Virus record (IMG/VR): IMGVR_UViG_3300028045_000070
DNA from: a virus
Reading direction: 5' to 3' (one strand)
Length of the DNA: 28,629 nucleotides
Part shown: positions 3,765 to 28,279 of the stretch, piece after piece
How positions within the stretch are numbered: position 1 is the first letter of the stretch
How the letters are laid out: each line of letters begins with the position of its first letter
Program-made: the position numbers and the translations under genes
Notes under the pieces: model-generated
Seen by the model: only the letters and a program-made list of their open reading frames with translations
Database searches by the model: none
Told to the model about the DNA's origin: nothing

Positions 3765-5381
3765 CTACAGATCCAATTGTCTACCAGCACTAGTATCACC
3801 GGGGTTGTCAATAACGCTGGCGTTGACAGCATTCTTGGAAGCCCACGCTGCCATATGATCTAGCTGCTTTGACTTTGATTTGGCTAGGGGGTTTGTCTGG
3901 TTAATAGCAACCTCAATGCCTTTAGCACTGATTTCCTCTTCCTTGTAAAAGGCACTGTAAAGTGCACTTACAATGGATTCCTCTAGCTCCGCTCCGCTGA
4001 AATCCTTTGATGCTTCGACACAACTGTCAACGCCCTCGGCAAAAACCTCACTAGGATCACGACCGTACTTCTTGACGTGAATATTAAGAATCTCTTCTCG
4101 CTCTTTAGTAGAAGGCAGGCCAACGAAGAAGATTTCATCGAAGCGGCCCTTACGCAAAAGCTCAGGAGGCAACCCTTCAATCCGGTTGACAGTAGCAACG
4201 ATAAATACCGGAGCAGTTTTCTCCTGCATCCAGGTGATGAAGTTGCCAAAGACACGCTGGCTAGTCCCCCCATCAGTTGAGCCACCGCCCATTCCTGAAA
4301 ATGCCTTATCCATTTCATCAATCCAGAGAACGCAGTTACCTACCGCCTCAACAGTCTGAATAGCTGTGCGCAGATTAGCCTCACTTTGACCGACCAGACC
4401 GCCGAAGACACGTCCGACATCAAAGCGGATCAGGGGAACACCAAGAATGTTGCTAGTGGCTTTAGCTGAGAGGCTCTTGCCGCACCCAGGAAGGCCCACT
4501 AGCAAGATACCGCGAGGCATGGGCAGTTTGAAGTCGCGGGCCTTCTTACTAAAAGCCTTACTGCGAATCATTAGCCACTTTTTGAGGTTCTGTAGTCCCC
4601 CAACATCCTTGGCCGTTTCCGCTGCCTCAAAATACTCCAGAATGCCTGTCTTTTTAACAGCCAGTGCCTTTTCTCCTAGAACCATTTTAGAGATGGGCTT
4701 TACTTCTTCCTCTCCTGCCTTTTTGGCTTCAGCCCGCTCTACCAAGGCTTTGGAGAATGCCGCTTCTGCTTCGTCTGTGGTCAAACCCATAGCAGCCTGG
4801 ACGATACGTTCAATCTCATCGTCCTCGATAACACCGATTTTCTTCTTGTTACCGCTGTACAGTGCGTTAAAGATCTGGAAGATTTCCTCCTTGCCAGGAA
4901 GATCAAACTCAATAAGAGAGATATCTTTTTCCAGTTCCTTGGGAATTTCGCTAACTGGGCTAATGATAATCAAGGTTTTCTGCGTTTGCCGAAAATCCTT
5001 AGCAATATCCCGAATAAGACGCCTAATTACTGGATTCTTCAGAAAACTGTGAAAATCACGAAATACGAAGATTTTCTTTCCAGGCCGATCTTTGATCGCT
5101 TGCAGGGCCTCCCCAGGATCAGTCTCTTCATCCAGGGCCTCAGCACCATTTGCACCGATTTCGATAAAGCCTTCCGTGCAAGACCATACCTCAAGACCAC
5201 GCTTGCACTTTTTAGCGGCTTCAAAGATAGTCATCTCGCCACGATTTTCTTCTGCTGTTTGCAGGTAGATAATCGGGTAGCTGGCCTTGATGTAGGGAAC
5301 AAGTATATTCATGTGATCCACGTAGGTTAGTGGGAGGCGTCTATATGCCCATATTAGAGCACAGAATACGCTTTTTGTCAA
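3765..5381 (-). CDS. AAA+ ATPase, Ycf46-like family
   Basis: Walker A is LLVGLPGCGKSLSAKA and Walker B is VLWIDEMDKAF. The sensor/arginine-finger region LRKGRFDEIFFVGLP and the LIRFDVGRVFGG motif are characteristic of Ycf46. Confidence 0.85.
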   Translation of the reverse strand: MTKSVFCALIWAYRRLPLTYVDHMNILVPYIKASYPIIYLQTAEENRGEMTIFEAAKKCKRGLEVWSCTEGFIEIGANGAEALDEETDPGEALQAIKDRPGKKIFVFRDFHSFLKNPVIRRLIRDIAKDFRQTQKTLIIISPVSEIPKELEKDISLIEFDLPGKEEIFQIFNALYSGNKKKIGVIEDDEIERIVQAAMGLTTDEAEAAFSKALVERAEAKKAGEEEVKPISKMVLGEKALAVKKTGILEYFEAAETAKDVGGLQNLKKWLMIRSKAFSKKARDFKLPMPRGILLVGLPGCGKSLSAKATSNILGVPLIRFDVGRVFGGLVGQSEANLRTAIQTVEAVGNCVLWIDEMDKAFSGMGGGSTDGGTSQRVFGNFITWMQEKTAPVFIVATVNRIEGLPPELLRKGRFDEIFFVGLPSTKEREEILNIHVKKYGRDPSEVFAEGVDSCVEASKDFSGAELEESIVSALYSAFYKEEEISAKGIEVAINQTNPLAKSKSKQLDHMAAWASKNAVNASVIDNPGDTSAGRQLDL

Positions 5382-6217: not shown

Positions 6218-6245
6218 ACTATAGCATTTGCCAAAAACCTGTCAA
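6218..6245 (-). promoter_or_regulatory. sigma70-type promoter (TTGACAGG, N16, TATAGT) for the 5393-6187/AAA+ operon
   Basis: The minus strand reads TTGACAGGTTTTTGGCAAATGCTATAGT. A leader of about 30 nt with GGGGAAAAGGA follows before the ATG. Confidence 0.55.
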
Positions 6246-9011: not shown

Positions 9012-9039
9012 AGCTTACCTTAAGGAGGATCCCTGTCAA
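9012..9039 (-). promoter_or_regulatory. sigma70-type promoter (TTGACAGG, N16, TAAGCT)
   Basis: The minus strand reads TTGACAGGGATCCTCCTTAAGGTAAGCT, about 20 nt upstream of the 8990 ATG. Confidence 0.5.
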
Positions 9040-9054
9040 GGGACTGTAATCTTA

Positions 9055-9441
9055 CTATTGATTTGCTGAATGCTTAGGAGCATAGAAAGTACAAAGTTCA
9101 GTCCCAGCAGATACATCCTTCAGGGCGATGAAATCTAATAATCTGTTCTGGTCCCTGCCATTGATACTATAAAAAACATTTGGTGTCTTAGAGTGGTTGA
9201 ATATTGATCCATACCCGAAAACAACTAAGGCACCCTTTGGGTTACAGTGAGATTTAAAAACATAATTCTGCAGAATATTTGATTGGTCATATATCATATC
9301 CTTGTGAACTTCAACAAAAGGACAAATCTCTAATAGTTCCCCTTTTCGGATAGAACTTTTAGCGAAAACACCATAACCCGCTCCGGGAATTTTACTTTTA
9401 CCGATTATGAGTTTTACAGGCCCCTGGTACTTAGAATACAT
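9055..9441 (-). CDS. minimal SET-domain lysine methyltransferase (vSET-like, 128 aa)
   Basis: GAGYGVFAKSSIRKGELLEICPF is the SET-N GxG motif. FNHSKTPNV is the NHSxxPN motif. AGTELCTFY supplies the catalytic Tyr region. The overall layout resembles Chlorella virus vSET. Confidence 0.7.
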   Translation of the reverse strand: MYSKYQGPVKLIIGKSKIPGAGYGVFAKSSIRKGELLEICPFVEVHKDMIYDQSNILQNYVFKSHCNPKGALVVFGYGSIFNHSKTPNVFYSINGRDQNRLLDFIALKDVSAGTELCTFYAPKHSANQ

Positions 9442-10750: not shown

Positions 10751-10806
10751 ACAATAGCTATACGAACAATAGCTACATCTACATGCATAGCTACATCTAC
10801 ATGCAT
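10751..10806. repeat. short tandem direct repeats (2x18 bp agctacatctacatgcat and 2x10 bp acaatagcta)
   Basis: Read directly from the sequence in the intergenic/3'UTR space between the 10188 and 10810 genes. Confidence 0.6.
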
Positions 10807-11669: not shown

Positions 11670-11875
11670 AGATTTTCAGGCCAATTACTATTAAAACTTT
11701 TAACGATCTCGCCCTTGATGATAGCGCAATCCCATCGGGTAAAACCACGCTTCTTCATCCGCTCAATATGAGCCTTTAGCCCCGCAGCTTTAGCTTCCAC
11801 CAACAGAATCTCTCCATCGGTTTCTCTCTGAAATATCAATACATGAGTGAACATTATAGCTCTAGCAAAGAACAA
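11666..11875 (-). CDS. small hypothetical protein
   Basis: 69-aa ORF. An internal start at MFTHV is also possible. Confidence 0.35.
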   Translation of the reverse strand: MFFARAIMFTHVLIFQRETDGEILLVEAKAAGLKAHIERMKKRGFTRWDCAIIKGEIVKSFNSNWPENL

Positions 11876-11961
11876 TTAGGGCAACGTCGGACCAGTTTTT
11901 TAAGTGGTGCCAGTCCTCCACATCCGATAGGTAAAAGCACTACCCTAATTGTTAGTTGATT

Positions 11962-12324
11962 TTAGCGATGGCGACGACGAGGCGTAGTGCGACGACGAGG
12001 CGTAATCACGCGATAACGAGGCGTAACCACACGACTACGACGAGCGCCCCGACGACGATGACGTGGGCGGTAGATGGGACGTGGGCGATAGATAGGCCGA
12101 CGCGGGCGATAGATAGGCCGACGTGCGCGGGGGCGCTGCGTCCGGTAACGGGGCGTGCAAATTCGCTGTGGGTAGCAGAACTTTACACGACGTGCAACAC
12201 GCACATAAGTTCTACCGCAACGCTGGTAGCTATAAACCACACGGGTTCCACAAGCCTCAGCAGTCGAGGTAAAAGTTGTCAAACTCAGCACAACGGCTGC
12301 CAAAAACGCAAAAATAGTTTTCAT
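11962..12324 (-). CDS. secreted Cys-containing protein with Pro/Arg-rich PIYRPR tandem repeats
   Basis: The signal peptide is MKTIFAFLAAVVLSLTTFTSTAEA. GGAG lies 8 nt upstream of the ATG. The mature part contains RRPIYRPRRPIYRPRPIYRPRHRRR, and the opposite-strand ORF is a shadow. Confidence 0.55.
   Translation of the reverse strand: MKTIFAFLAAVVLSLTTFTSTAEACGTRVVYSYQRCGRTYVRVARRVKFCYPQRICTPRYRTQRPRARRPIYRPRRPIYRPRPIYRPRHRRRGARRSRVVTPRYRVITPRRRTTPRRRHR
12062..12124. repeat. roughly 3x21 bp tandem repeat (gggcgatagataggccgacg) encoding the PIYRPR repeats
   Basis: Read directly from the sequence. Confidence 0.6.
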
Positions 12325-12373
12325 TTAGAAATCTCCAGTTCTAAACCCAGTAGAACATAGTCAGATCGCTCTG

Positions 12374-12514
12374 TCAAGAGCCCGCTGTATCTTTGATAGC
12401 TTTTACTATCAAATAAACTCCCAGCCAAAAGTTGGCTAGCGTAAAAATACCAAATCCACTCCAAAAGAGGAAGTAAACACAGTCTTTGCTGATGCCAAGA
12501 TCCGCTAGTCCCAT
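12374..12514 (-). CDS. 46-aa putative membrane peptide
   Basis: Manual translation gives MGLADLGISKDCVYFLFWSGFGIFTLANFWLGVYLIVKAIKDTAGS. Its TGA stop lies inside the TTGACA box of the downstream promoter. Confidence 0.25.
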   Translation of the reverse strand: MGLADLGISKDCVYFLFWSGFGIFTLANFWLGVYLIVKAIKDTAGS

Positions 12515-12642
12515 TTAATTATCCTTATCCTTTAGCTGATCCATCGTACCGCTTTGCTTGCAATACTGGCATTCCCAGTTATCGAGAGGGGGCTTTCCTT
12601 TACGGCTCATCCAATTATGAGGGTTGTTAGTCATTCTATTTC

Positions 12643-14137: not shown

Positions 14138-15211
14138 CTAAGCACCAAAGTAGTGCAGCACAAAGTACCAACCAGCCATATCTACAGCAGCAAACAAAGC
14201 CACTACTGCCAGACCAATCTTAACCTTGCTGCTAGGGTTCGACACCTTAGCCCAGGCCCTCTTCACAAGACCAGGACTCTTGGTAGTCAGCATAGCAACA
14301 TTCAAGTGGGTTTTTTCTCCAGAAGGAGACTCTACCTGCCAAACATTTGCTGAAACCTTAGCAAGCAGAATGTAAGATGCACTCTTGAAGACGTGGTAAA
14401 CCTTCATTCCAGCGATAAACGACTGTTGGGCAATCTCTACACGGGCCTTACCCGGAGCAACCTCTTCCGCAGCATCTTGGTAGTGGGTTGAGACGACAGC
14501 CTCAAGGACGTTTTTAGCTGTAAGCAATTTCGGTGTATCTGGCTCGTTCATAACTGGTTCCTTAATCTCTGTCTTACCCATTGTAGTGGCGGGGTCTACG
14601 CCGAAGAATGATGTGCCATACTTGTCGAAGTAGGTTCCCTCTGCAAGATTTCCAGGTGGCTTCCCGCTGGCAAATGCGGCAGAATAAGATGCCTTCCCGG
14701 TGGCAAATGCGGCAGCATAGGATGCTTGCCACTCTCGACACTGGCAGCCAAAGCCCATCAACTCCTTCATAGTGCAAGAGCACAAATCAATTTCTTGACA
14801 AGGATTTGTTTGTCCCGAAGGGGCTTGAAAGTAGCCTGGCTCATAAGGCTCATATTGCTCGGTTGAGCACAATTCCGGGTGTTTTGGTTTTGCTGTTTTC
14901 ATATCAAAAGCTCCTTCGCTCGTAAACCTATCAGGATAGCCAGAAAAAATCGCATTCAACTCGCGGAACTTCTTTGCCACGATCTTTGCTTTGCACTTAT
15001 ATCCGACTTTTTCGGCGCACCCCGGATGATACCACTTATGATAATCGCCCCAATCGGAGGAGTTTGCCGGAACACCGACGCGGGTTGACTTATCCGCAAT
15101 TAGCTCCTGGCATTCTCGGCATTTGCTGGTGCCCGATTTAGCAGTCGCTACGATGAAAGCCTTCTTTTTCTTTTTCCGTTTCGTCTTTGGCATACTCGCG
15201 CTCGCGCTCAT
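14138..15211 (-). CDS. PARP-type zinc-finger (zf-PARP) protein with the paralog-family C-terminal domain and TM anchor (family member 2)
   Basis: AKSGTSKCRECQELI-x27-HKWYHPGC has the same spacing as the PARP1 nick-sensor finger (C-x2-C-x28-H-x2-C) and follows a KKKKKK stretch. The C-terminus HYQDAAEEVAPGKARVEIAQQSFIAGMKVYHVFK... ends in a TM helix. The start was set at the internal ATG 15211, which the promoter geometry makes leaderless. Confidence 0.7.
   Translation of the reverse strand: MSASASMPKTKRKKKKKAFIVATAKSGTSKCRECQELIADKSTRVGVPANSSDWGDYHKWYHPGCAEKVGYKCKAKIVAKKFRELNAIFSGYPDRFTSEGAFDMKTAKPKHPELCSTEQYEPYEPGYFQAPSGQTNPCQEIDLCSCTMKELMGFGCQCREWQASYAAAFATGKASYSAAFASGKPPGNLAEGTYFDKYGTSFFGVDPATTMGKTEIKEPVMNEPDTPKLLTAKNVLEAVVSTHYQDAAEEVAPGKARVEIAQQSFIAGMKVYHVFKSASYILLAKVSANVWQVESPSGEKTHLNVAMLTTKSPGLVKRAWAKVSNPSSKVKIGLAVVALFAAVDMAGWYFVLHYFGA
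14661..14726. repeat. 2x33 bp intragenic tandem duplication (encodes ASYAAAFATGK / ASYSAAFASGK)
   Basis: Read directly from the sequence. Confidence 0.6.
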
Positions 15212-15218
15212 TTTTCCT

Positions 15219-15247
15219 ATTAGATCACGCAGGGCGGGATCTGTCAA
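15219..15247 (-). promoter_or_regulatory. sigma70-type promoter (TTGACAG, N17, TCTAAT) with the ATG 7 nt after the -10
   Basis: The minus strand reads TTGACAGATCCCGCCCTGCGTGATCTAATAGGAAAAATG. Confidence 0.5.
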
Positions 15248-15255
15248 TGGAAGCC

Positions 15256-15603
15256 TCAAAGCCAAACCAGAGCCAAGCTGCCCCTTTTATTTTCGGTATC
15301 GACCTCTACAACAGGATGCAGTTTCTTGTCTTTGCCTAAAGGGGCAACACCTTGCAATTTAAGCTCTTTTTCAAGAGTTTTAACTGCGTGGCCGGGATTA
15401 AATGCTGCAACAATTTCTATTGCTTCATCCAAAGAACGACATTCATAGTAACGCTTATCACTTTTCCAGTTGAGCAGGCATTGGATGGTCATCCAATTAA
15501 AGCCGATGGACACACCTGTAAGAGATATAAGATTCTCGCCCTCATTACATGGAATTGCACAAAGAATATCAGAAAGCTGCTGTAGTTTCTCGAAATCAAT
15601 CAC
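15256..15603 (-). CDS. hypothetical protein (start uncertain)
   Basis: The track ORF 15256-15753 overlaps the upstream gene by 158 nt. A GTG at 15601-15603, preceded by AGGACGG and overlapping the upstream TGA (GTGATTGA), is a plausible coupled start. Confidence 0.35.
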   Translation of the reverse strand: MIDFEKLQQLSDILCAIPCNEGENLISLTGVSIGFNWMTIQCLLNWKSDKRYYECRSLDEAIEIVAAFNPGHAVKTLEKELKLQGVAPLGKDKKLHPVVEVDTENKRGSLALVWL

Positions 15604-16021
15604 CACAACCGTCCTGGGTCTTTTTATGAGGAGGCATACAAGTGCGGCACAAGCATTCCGCACACGCCAGGATCTTTGTATACTTTGGAGGGCTGTTTTC
15701 GTCCGTAATGCGGACCAGATTTTGGATTTCTGCTCGATCTGAGCCACAATCACAACCAGCCTCTACATCCCCAACCACAAAACTCTCTACATCCCCAACC
15801 CCAAAACTCACAGTATGCTCCTCCCAGATCCTCTTAATGGCTTTTCCACTATCTGTTTCATGGAAAAGACAAGGCTGACCAAGATGCTGATCTTTATCGT
15901 GGTCACACTCGATCTTAAACTCGTTCACAAAGGCTTGCCCCAACCTGAGATGTGGAAACCCTCCTGTATTGAATTTCTGCAAGAAAGGCCGGATCTGAGC
16001 ATAACTAACTTTGTTCTTCAT
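15596..16021 (-). CDS. hypothetical Cys-containing protein
   Basis: 141-aa ORF whose ATG lies 5 nt after a TAGGAT -10, so the transcript is leaderless. Confidence 0.45.
   Translation of the reverse strand: MKNKVSYAQIRPFLQKFNTGGFPHLRLGQAFVNEFKIECDHDKDQHLGQPCLFHETDSGKAIKRIWEEHTVSFGVGDVESFVVGDVEAGCDCGSDRAEIQNLVRITDENSPPKYTKILACAECLCRTCMPPHKKTQDGCGD
15761..15806. repeat. 2x22 bp intragenic tandem repeat (ctctacatccccaacc[a/c]caaaa)
   Basis: Read directly from the sequence. It encodes GVGDVESFVVGDVEAG. Confidence 0.55.
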
Positions 16022-16026
16022 ACCTA

Positions 16027-16055
16027 ATCCTAGATCATTAGCGGATTTCTGTCAA
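16027..16055 (-). promoter_or_regulatory. sigma70-type promoter (TTGACA, N17, TAGGAT), leaderless
   Basis: The minus strand reads TTGACAGAAATCCGCTAATGATCTAGGATTAGGTATG. Confidence 0.5.
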
Positions 16056-25094: not shown

Positions 25095-25511
25095 TTAACG
25101 ATCATTCTTGGTTTGATCCTGTAATTTCTTAACATTGCTAGCAATGTCTGCTTTAACTTGTTTAATGTATTCTAGTAGAAGCTCTGCTGATCTTACAGCA
25201 ACTTTATCTTCGGAAGAAAGAGCGAAGCTGAAGAAATCTGCTGTACTTTTCTTAGACTTTACTTGCGACTCAAGACCCTCAAGATTTTTTAGTAACAGCT
25301 TATAGGCTTCTACTTCTTTTAGAAGTGTCACACGTTCTTCGGCTGTTAGCAACTTTGGTGCAGGCTGCTCCTCGCCGCCACCAGAATCCCCACCATTATC
25401 AGATTTATTATCTTTCTGGCGAAATTCTAATGTAGGATTATCCGTAAGGGGCTTTGGTGTTGTACCACACCCACACAATAGAAAACCCAGAAGCAAAGAA
25501 AGAAGTTTCAT
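25095..25511 (-). CDS. putative lipoprotein
   Basis: MKLLSLLLGFLLCGCG looks like a signal peptide with a lipobox-like Cys. A low-complexity GGDSGGGEE segment and a coiled coil follow. Confidence 0.5.
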   Translation of the reverse strand: MKLLSLLLGFLLCGCGTTPKPLTDNPTLEFRQKDNKSDNGGDSGGGEEQPAPKLLTAEERVTLLKEVEAYKLLLKNLEGLESQVKSKKSTADFFSFALSSEDKVAVRSAELLLEYIKQVKADIASNVKKLQDQTKNDR

Positions 25512-26025: not shown

Positions 26026-26342
26026 TTTTCTAAACCTTTTCTCCACTCGTTTAAGAAACAATCTTGGAAGTTGGCTCCGTGCGCCCTTCCTCTTTGTGTT
26101 AGCGCCATTTAATCATGGCGGGTGATTTCTGTCAAGGTAAGCGGCTGACCTCCCGTGGGAGCACCGCCTCCAATGCCCATGACAGTAGCATACACCCTAC
26201 CTAGCTGTCAATGGATGCAGTTTCCAGTTTCTCAACCATAGAAGGAATCTCAGCTAGCAAGCGAGAAAGACGACCGCAGTTATCCTTCCAATCAGCAGCA
26301 TCCCTCCAAGTTTCTGCGTCAGCAGCTAGTTTTAGCATTTCT

Positions 26343-26392
26343 TAGTATGTCATTGAACCAGAATCCTTGGTATGTCATTGAACCAGAATCCT
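26343..26392. repeat. 2x25 bp tandem direct repeat (t[a/g]gtatgtcattgaaccagaatcct)
   Basis: Read directly from the sequence. The second copy supplies the last codons and the stop of the 26375-26752 gene. Confidence 0.6.
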
Positions 26393-26752
26393 ATCATCTC
26401 TGACACGCAAACACGCATGGCAGGTCACTCCGATGTTTTCTACATAATCTGGGACGCAACCGCACCTCCAGATAAGCCCTGTCTCGTAAGCCCGCTCAAT
26501 GCCCGTCTCTCGGCAACCATCTTCATTACAGTAAGCAAAGCGTTCTGATTGTCCATCATAGACGGCACCAAGCCAGCAATGCGTCCCACCCTCGTTGACG
26601 TGTTCACTGGGGTTTCCGCAAAAGATGCAAGCCCAAGGCAATCTATCAGCACTATAATCAGGGCAATCTCCCTGGTCCTGAAACACAATAGCTCGATCTT
26701 GTAAGGTATAGTGCGGTTTAGGCACTCTAGGCATGTTGACTCCGGGGCTCAT
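26375..26752 (-). CDS. Cys-rich protein
   Basis: 125-aa ORF containing CIFCGN, CNEDGC, CGC and CHAC motifs. It is leaderless, with the ATG 6 nt after the -10. Confidence 0.45.
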   Translation of the reverse strand: MSPGVNMPRVPKPHYTLQDRAIVFQDQGDCPDYSADRLPWACIFCGNPSEHVNEGGTHCWLGAVYDGQSERFAYCNEDGCRETGIERAYETGLIWRCGCVPDYVENIGVTCHACLRVRDDRILVQ

Positions 26753-28251: not shown

Positions 28252-28279
28252 ATTGTATCAGGACTTGTTTTCCTGTCAA
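28252..28279 (-). promoter_or_regulatory. sigma70-type promoter (TTGACAGG, N16, TACAAT)
   Basis: The minus strand reads TTGACAGGAAAACAAGTCCTGATACAAT. Confidence 0.55.

Follow-up and report, generated by a model that had tools for sequence, protein, structure and literature searches.

What is encoded by the short, arginine-rich open reading frame (ORF) at positions 11962–12324 of the viral record IMGVR_UViG_3300028045_000070, on which strand, and what might its product do for the virus? The whole stretch of 28,629 nucleotides (nt) that was analysed is called the window here. A secreted protein with tandem repeats resembling proline-rich antimicrobial peptides (PrAMPs) had been proposed for this ORF from the sequence (the original prediction). 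The analysis presented here points to a minus-strand gene for an orphan, strongly cationic protein that begins with a predicted signal peptide, continues as a predicted β-hairpin with four cysteines and ends in a long Arg/Pro repeat tail (Table 1), and whose likeness to PrAMPs is largely compositional. A role at the envelope of the infected cell is proposed tentatively.

Table 1. Coordinates of the gene, of the parts of its product and of the flanking signals in the window
Feature	Position	Strand	Description
Complete coding sequence	11962..12324	(-)	363 nt, 120 codons + TAA (ORF list, translation)
Signal peptide	12253..12324	(-)	residues 1-24, MKTIFAFLAAVVLSLTTFTSTAEA; predicted signal peptidase I cleavage AEA|C
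Cysteine-containing cationic domain	12157..12252	(-)	residues 25-56; C25, C36, C50, C56
Tandem array 1	12060..12129	(-)	period 21, 3.5 copies, 86% matches, score 98 (Tandem Repeats Finder)
Tandem array 2	11971..12040	(-)	period 21, 3.5 copies, score 77 (Tandem Repeats Finder)
Shine-Dalgarno-like GGAG	12333..12336	(-)	8 nt ahead of ATG (12322-12324)
Sigma-70-type promoter candidate	12349..12377	(-)	TTGACA (12372-12377), N17, TCTACT; 48 nt ahead of ATG
Stem-loop	11866..11958	(-)	inverted repeat I1, 16-nt arms (11866-11881 / 11943-11958), 61-nt loop
Adjoining upstream gene	12374..12514	(-)	46-residue single-pass membrane protein (translation, hydrophobicity)

Coding strand and tandem repeats of the gene

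The ORF is present with exactly the translation given in the original prediction, which did not name the strand. It lies on the minus strand, as do all neighbouring genes, and gene calling finds the same protein on eight metagenome contigs. Of the six frames, the minus frame scores best in codon log-likelihood (−0.065 per codon, compared with −0.354 for the plus-strand ORF 11956–12360), the GC content at third codon positions (GC3) of the gene is 0.446 versus a window GC of 0.466, codon positions 1 and 2 are GC-rich, and CGT is the favoured arginine codon, as it also is in 25 reference genes. The GGAG that had been noted upstream of the start is found at the expected place, and a motif of this Shine–Dalgarno (SD) type precedes about half of the called genes in the upstream-motif table. 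Expression of the opposite-strand ORF (11956–12360) had been named as a threat to the original prediction. This ORF has the worse codon score, a TTG start without an SD motif and no family match, runs antisense to all neighbours, and turns the substitutions between the repeat units described below into non-synonymous ones (R/W, R/G and I/V). On the codon, repeat, SD and neighbour-strand evidence for the minus frame, it is read as a shadow ORF of a CGN-rich gene, and it is very probable that the gene is real and located on the minus strand.

The 21-bp tandem DNA units that had been placed at 12062–12124 are matched closely by array 1 of Tandem Repeats Finder. Its product reads RRPIYRP / RRPIYRP / RPIYRP, with one unit exactly one codon short (repeat family D2, spacing 18 and 21), and only three substitutions separate the units (CCG/CCA, CCT/CCC and TAT/TAC), all three of them synonymous in the minus frame. 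A second array, absent from the original prediction, encodes VVTPRYR / VITPRRR / TTPRRR(HR) (repeat family D1, spacing 18, 21 and 21) and supplies three of the four T-P-R-(R/Y) motifs of the protein, those at residues 101, 108 and 114, the fourth being located at residue 57. Both arrays are in frame, and in each of them one unit is short by exactly 3 nt (spacings 18/21). They encode most of a 64-residue tail (residues 57–120), in which seven degenerate P-x-(Y/R)-R heptads are found at residues 58, 70, 77, 83, 102, 109 and 115. The suggestion that the repeat region may vary in length was not borne out, as the five other assemblies are DNA-identical in the gene (six, including the window). Elsewhere in the window, near-perfect two-copy tandem repeats are present at 10769–10806, 14660–14725, 15761–15809 and 26341–26392 (18, 33, 24 and 25 bp, scores 76–111), with the 25-bp pair lying just upstream of the gene 26375–26752 and extending into its start.

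The encoded protein, its predicted structure and its likenesses

The protein (120 residues as a precursor, 96 in its predicted mature form, isoelectric point 12) starts with what is by rules a signal peptide of the textbook Sec type, in agreement with the original prediction. Lys2 is followed by a 20-residue uncharged run (TIFAFLAAVVLSLTTFTSTA), Ala22 and Ala24 occupy positions −3 and −1, and cleavage is predicted at AEA|C; the assignment is a rule-based reading of the sequence. A crude version of the signal-peptide rule is passed by 4 of the 617 start/ORF combinations in the window, namely by two artefacts, one true lipoprotein and the protein described here. The hydrophobic run reads as too short and too rich in Ser and Thr for a typical membrane anchor. 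The lipobox [LVI][ASTVI][GAS]C (PROSITE PS00013) has no regex match in the protein, which carries Glu at −2, so that cleavage by signal peptidase I ahead of Cys25 would be expected. Taking these features together, we consider export of the product likely. A canonical lipoprotein signal, MKLLSLLLGFLLCG|C (lipobox LLCG|C), is carried by another protein of the window (25095–25511, minus strand, 138 residues), which further comprises a linker rich in Pro and Thr, an acidic stretch rich in Gly and a C terminus resembling a coiled coil, with no adjoining i-spanin-like partner. The presence of this lipoprotein in the same phage indicates that standard export signals are in use in the host, and its LLCG|C contrasts with the AEA|C described above.

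The mature chain comprises 35 Arg, 1 Lys, 2 His, 12 Pro, 9 Tyr and 4 Cys, with neither Asp nor Glu, and has a net charge of +36. In residues 67–120, again free of Asp and Glu, 24 of the 54 residues are Arg (44%) and nine are Pro (17%, compared with 12.5% in the whole mature chain), and only in a 20-residue repeat core does the proportion of Pro come near 30%. The Cys-containing segment that had been noted after the signal peptide is confirmed as residues 25–56, with four Cys. An AlphaFold2 run on the single sequence (mean predicted local distance difference test score, pLDDT, of 62) places a helix at residues 2–18 and a β-hairpin with strands 24–36 and 39–51, with block pLDDT values of 94 and 88 for residues 31–50, and gives no structure beyond residue 52, the tail having pLDDT below 55. 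If the register is i+j=75, as the limits of the strands indicate, Cys25 and Cys50 would be cross-strand partners, and a disulfide between them could staple the hairpin. Intermolecular bonds through Cys36 and Cys56 are possible in this model. The four Cys lack CxxC spacing, which in the sequence argues for disulfides rather than zinc. A Foldseek comparison of the model with the PDB returned nothing below E = 0.4.

No homologue of the protein was detected in a word-indexed search of 5.8 billion proteins, among PDB sequences, or in an exhaustive phmmer search of 1.84 billion representatives, where a control with mutated copies indicated that, in a database so large, relatives of about 40% identity and above are detectable. 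There was no family match in Pfam, PHROGs, PADLOC or NCBIfam and no match by tblastn to GenBank phages (E <= 1), and scanning viral, metagenome and genome contigs for peptide patterns brought up no relative. The exact sequence is missing from the cluster table, and no phage or plasmid was matched by megablast with the surrounding 7 kb. On these searches the protein is an orphan and a member of no known family, and no homology to antimicrobial peptide (AMP) precursors was found in the databases searched.

Comparison with PrAMPs was made by local alignment of the mature protein to ten of them (sequences from the literature), each evaluated against 1000 composition-preserving shuffles. Four alignments beat most shuffles (apidaecin, p = 0.001; Bac5, 0.009; arasin, 0.014; metalnikowin, 0.021), whereas six fall within the shuffle range (Bac7, 0.089; drosocin, 0.13; Tur1A, 0.16; pyrrhocoricin, 0.16; PR-39, 0.21; oncocin, 0.37), so that the alignment to pyrrhocoricin is no better than 16% of shuffles. 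The raw scores of two protamines (salmine, 64, p = 0.023; human P1, 59, p = 0.35) compare with 31–57 for the PrAMPs, and the protamine shuffle tests range from p = 0.02 to 0.99. Since six of ten PrAMPs do not rise above shuffles and protamines score as high, the resemblance is mostly compositional rather than specific. What stands of the likeness originally claimed is the chemistry and the short motifs. The protein is cationic, rich in Arg, Pro and Tyr, repeat-prone and predicted to be disordered in its tail, as pyrrhocoricin, oncocin, apidaecin, Bac5/Bac7 and PR-39 are, it has the motifs RP(V/I)Y-P-P and PRPIY in common with them (the latter pentamer with pyrrhocoricin), and its precursor has a signal peptide. 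Oncocin itself contains PRRIYNR, not the PRPIYNR cited in the original prediction. In contrast to PrAMPs, which are short linear chains of ~15–45 residues with ~25% or more Pro and PRP/PxP motifs, the protein is far poorer in proline and far richer in arginine, is phage-encoded, has no acidic propiece, and consists of 96 residues with a predicted Cys-stapled hairpin.

Other classes of peptides share different parts of this architecture. The crustacean arasin 1 and penaeidins also join a linear Pro/Arg-rich segment to a small domain bearing at least four Cys, and the alignment with arasin beats 98.6% of shuffles; in the phage protein, however, the Cys domain comes first, its sequence is unrelated, and the origin is viral and prokaryotic. 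The predicted Arg/Val/Tyr-rich antiparallel hairpin with its possible cross-strand disulfide closure recalls arenicin, tachyplesin, protegrin and thanatin, although its strands are longer (13 residues) and are followed by the 64-residue polycationic tail, and the similarity of the hairpin segment to nine β-hairpin AMPs lies within shuffles. Protamines and SPKK tails resemble the protein in its Arg content of 44% in the tail, in its T-P-R-R motifs and in RPxYRPR, as found in mammalian P1; the occurrence of (S/T)-P-(K/R)-(K/R) in an Arg-rich, acid-free chain is a likeness of chemistry only. Protamines are nuclear and have no signal peptides, and since the phage protein has one, a nuclear or nucleoid role is disfavoured. 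Judged by sequence, the likeness to PrAMPs, protamines and β-hairpin AMPs is probably one of convergent composition and architecture, not of homology.

Promoter, neighbouring genes and phage context

The promoter candidate of the gene overlaps the stop codon of the upstream gene. In the window, TTGACA occurs 30 times versus 15.3 +/- 3.9 expected, 13 of the 21 copies on the minus strand are intergenic although intergenic DNA makes up 17% of the window (binomial P = 5e-6), and most of those copies are followed 16–17 nt on by a −10-like hexamer. A promoter family of the sigma-70-like form (c)TTGACA(g)-N16/17-TAnnnT is observed ahead of many minus-strand genes, with examples on that strand at 5376–5381, 6240–6245, 9034–9039, 16050–16055, 18065–18070, 21702–21707, 23944–23949 and 28274–28279. 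The T4-type late promoter TATAAATA does not occur anywhere in the window. In T4-like phages, host-type promoters form the early class, and the pattern suggests that the whole region is an early block transcribed by the host polymerase. Within it, the gene looks like a separate unit with a host-type (sigma-70-like) promoter. On its other side, an inverted repeat lies directly 3′ of the stop codon and occupies most of the 107-nt gap to the next gene. The predicted RNA stem-loop (−31.5 kcal/mol, z = −2.3 versus shuffles) has no U-tract and no match in Rfam, where a tRNA is the sole match in the window, and a role in termination or in RNA processing is possible.

Genes in the window are tightly packed on a single strand. 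The 46-residue membrane protein encoded directly upstream has no family match, and its gene stays beside the gene described here in both of the genome variants outlined below; on adjacency alone, it is a possible partner. The downstream genes encode soluble proteins of 62 and 60 residues. A tRNA-Thr gene (anticodon TGT, 22870–22942, minus strand) is located among the protein genes.

Five contigs that were fetched match the window with 100% identity for up to 12.7 kb, apart from one indel. On a 305-kb contig (L001), an extra 2,346 bp with five genes (L001 7447–9792) is present at window position 12532/12533, 208 bp upstream of the gene. The insert includes a gene for a SpoU-type methylase, its junction shows no microhomology, and both variants end in frame with ...KDKDN*, the 39-residue ORF of the window (12515–12634) being the fusion product of the shorter variant. 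The longest of the eight contigs encoding the identical protein are 304,719 and 599,739 bp in length.

A homologue of the eukaryotic major vault protein (MVP) of 585 residues is encoded at 16098–17855 (minus strand; Vault, Vault_3, Vault_4 and MVP_shoulder), and PARP-like, zf-PARP, WGR, SET and SNF2 proteins are encoded with it within 20 kb (genes at 21773–22522, 14138–15265, 1529–2305, 9055–9441 and 19591–21627), so that a vault/PARP-like gene set is seen in a virus of prokaryotes. MVP homologues at 40–57% identity are labelled Woesearchaeota, Nanoarchaeota, Uhrbacteria and Asgard in metagenome-assembled genomes, and some of these may be mis-binned phage contigs. Closer relatives have identities of 82, 71 and 65%; their contigs (L006–L011) do not have the downstream gene order of the window and include no Arg-rich signal-peptide ORF, and nothing came up when metagenomes were scanned with the vault alignment. 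The 65%-identical homologue, on an IMG/VR contig, adjoins a Gp23-type major capsid gene (E = 9e-78), and other relatives sit among tRNA-synthetase, RNA-ligase and UvrD genes. Two further gene products of the window resemble proteins of bacterial defence systems in PADLOC, namely an AAA ATPase (3765–5381, minus strand), similar to IetA (E = 7e-24), and the SNF2 helicase (19591–21627, minus strand), similar to DpdE, ZorD and DrmD (E down to 4e-27), and both are seen as phage copies of modules known from such systems. Family scans revealed no lysis or structural families near the gene, with no recognisable endolysin, holin or i-spanin within ~10 kb. We read the element, on its gene content, as a probable huge T4-like phage; the phage origin considered in the original prediction is supported by the length of the two longest contigs, by the tRNA-Thr gene and by the MVP relative beside Gp23.

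Possible roles of the protein and their implications

The mechanism that we favour, held tentatively and with rather less than even confidence as a whole, is that of an exported polycation acting at the envelope of the infected cell. The precursor would be exported by Sec and cut after Ala24, and the mature protein would be oxidised in the periplasm or extracytoplasmic space, where a Cys25–Cys50 disulfide would staple the hairpin. The mature polycation would then bind envelope polyanions by charge, be they anionic lipids or lipopolysaccharide, peptidoglycan or teichoic acids, or DNA in transit, and would act early in infection by conditioning the envelope or by excluding superinfecting phages. 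In this it would behave much as cationic polypeptides of the host-defence type do. Envelope conditioning or superinfection exclusion is favoured because of the early-type promoter and of the non-lysis, non-structural neighbourhood, and a diffusible ribosome-targeting peptide seems less likely than such a role. In T4-like phages, Sp (spackle) and Imm are small, early, secreted superinfection-exclusion proteins, and Sp is disulfide-bonded and inhibits a lysozyme. In the bacterial HXS defence system, the repeat protein HxsA is processed and periplasmic, is proposed to halt entering DNA by electrostatics, and needs radical S-adenosylmethionine maturases and a peptidoglycan-binding domain (PMC13128918). 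Both of the latter are absent here, and Sp, Imm and HxsA are unrelated in sequence to the phage protein.

Several observations weigh against this proposal. The charge of the chain is +4 in its first 18 mature residues and +36 overall, instead of being near-neutral or negative at its start as in Gram-negative Sec substrates, which by the positive-inside rule makes the protein a poor Sec substrate. From what is known of Sec in Escherichia coli, together with that rule, such charge hinders translocation, and the tail could be left in the cytoplasm and bind nucleic acids there. The −10 hexamer of the promoter candidate, TCTACT, matches at only 4 of 6 positions and lacks the conserved A at position 2, which is the reason why a stricter promoter scan does not list it. 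The AlphaFold2 model was derived from a single sequence and has a predicted template modelling score (pTM) of 0.24, and Cys36 and Cys56 have no evident partner in the predicted hairpin. Finally, no homologue supports any function, and since all assemblies are DNA-identical they provide no population evidence of selection.

The secreted weapon of the original prediction would have the tail, intact or proteolysed, enter other bacteria and block the exit tunnel or release factors, as oncocin, pyrrhocoricin, apidaecin and Bac7 do in blocking the ribosomal exit tunnel or release factors. The signal peptide, the repeated RPIYRPR and the PRPIY pentamer are in line with it, as are the four PrAMPs that align better than most shuffles and the existence of a Cys domain joined to a Pro/Arg domain in arasin and penaeidins; moreover, a doomed, phage-infected producer would need no immunity. 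Against this, most PrAMP alignments lie within shuffles and protamine scores equal or exceed them, the proportion of Pro is low in the mature chain and tail alike, PRP triplets are nearly absent, the 96-residue chain has a predicted folded domain, and neither homology to AMP precursors nor a natural phage-encoded PrAMP in the literature searched was found. The case for an inter-bacterial weapon is further weakened by the sigma-70-type promoter, which suggests early expression and action inside the infected cell, and we regard it as very unlikely. The promoter type also bears on a lysis accessory, in which the protein would disrupt the outer membrane or the envelope at the last step of lysis. 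The promoter class is the same as in the neighbouring auxiliary genes, TATAAATA is not found in the window, no endolysin, holin or i-spanin is recognisable within ~10 kb, and the protein has no lipobox. Such a role would suit a small, strongly cationic phage protein with a predicted amphiphilic β-hairpin of the membrane-permeabilising kind, and Cys as the first mature residue, together with a Pro-containing tail and a small membrane protein encoded directly upstream, loosely recalls o-spanins, although that 46-residue neighbour is too short for an i-spanin. The nearest precedent, the disruptin gp28 of phage phiKT, is likewise a phage-encoded orphan cationic peptide with AMP-like properties and no database homologues, but it is a 56-residue amphipathic α-helix of charge +7 that has no export signal and adjoins the endolysin (10.1101/515445). 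The protein described here, in contrast to that small helical type encoded in a lysis cassette, has a charge of +36, predicted β structure plus disorder, a signal peptide and a location away from lysis genes, and involvement in lysis is quite unlikely.

A protamine-like protein of the cytoplasm or virion, with its +36 tail condensing or coating DNA or RNA as a host shut-off factor or an internal protein of the capsid, is rather unlikely. It would account for the 35 Arg, for the four T-P-R-(R/Y) motifs of the SPKK minor-groove type and for protamine alignments scoring as high as those of PrAMPs; the positive-inside rule, given the +4 charge early in the mature chain, favours a cytoplasmic tail, and DNA- and chromatin-type domains (SNF2, PARP-like, zf-PARP, WGR and SET) are encoded nearby. 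On this explanation, the N terminus would be an uncleaved N-out/C-in anchor, or else a propeptide cut after Glu23 by the prohead protease; MKT...AE|A loosely recalls the T4 capsid-targeting MKTYQEFIAE|A. T4-type prohead proteases need (L/I)-x-E|, however, whereas the sequence at Glu23 is T-A-E, with T in place of L/I, and a related capsid gene has LLE|D; the alignment to MKTYQEFIAEA is at chance (p = 0.43). The N terminus, uniformly hydrophobic, is far better as a signal peptide than as an amphipathic targeting sequence, the four Cys without zinc-type spacing fit an oxidising compartment, and the gene lies outside a structural module. The remaining explanation dispenses with function, the ORF being young or non-functional and derived from tandem duplication of CG-rich 21-mers, or incidental to DNA-level elements such as protein-binding iterons. 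Its strict orphan status among 1.84 billion representatives and three contig collections would be expected on these terms, as would the GC content of 57% versus 47% locally, the codon score below that of every reference gene (minimum 0.011), the position in a variable region with an indel breakpoint 208 bp away, and the identity of all copies. A promoter, an SD motif, a rule-perfect signal peptide and a confident predicted hairpin would, however, be unlikely to come together in incidental sequence, the repeat indels preserve the frame and the changes between units are only synonymous, and the low codon score and high GC follow from an arginine content of 29%, with GC3 being normal; we consider this explanation unlikely.

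If the protein is inert, it adds another orphan ORF to those of huge phages. It is highly improbable that it represents the first PrAMP- or protamine-like effector outside animals, acting as a translation blocker in competitors or as a periplasmic trap for superinfecting DNA; should the translation-blocking or DNA-trapping reading be true, it would define a new effector class encoded by phages, with recent expansion of tandem repeats as its source. To our knowledge, cationic peptides of the host-defence type have so far been a hallmark of animals, with one helical example from a phage. The protein provides a test case for the handling of a +36 substrate by Sec and for the way in which tandem duplication within a reading frame may give rise to genes in giant phages. 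Provided that it is exported and active, huge phages would join the sources of cationic host-defence-type peptides, and the protein would offer a compact, genetically encoded scaffold of a β-hairpin and an Arg/Pro repeat for antimicrobial or anti-phage work.

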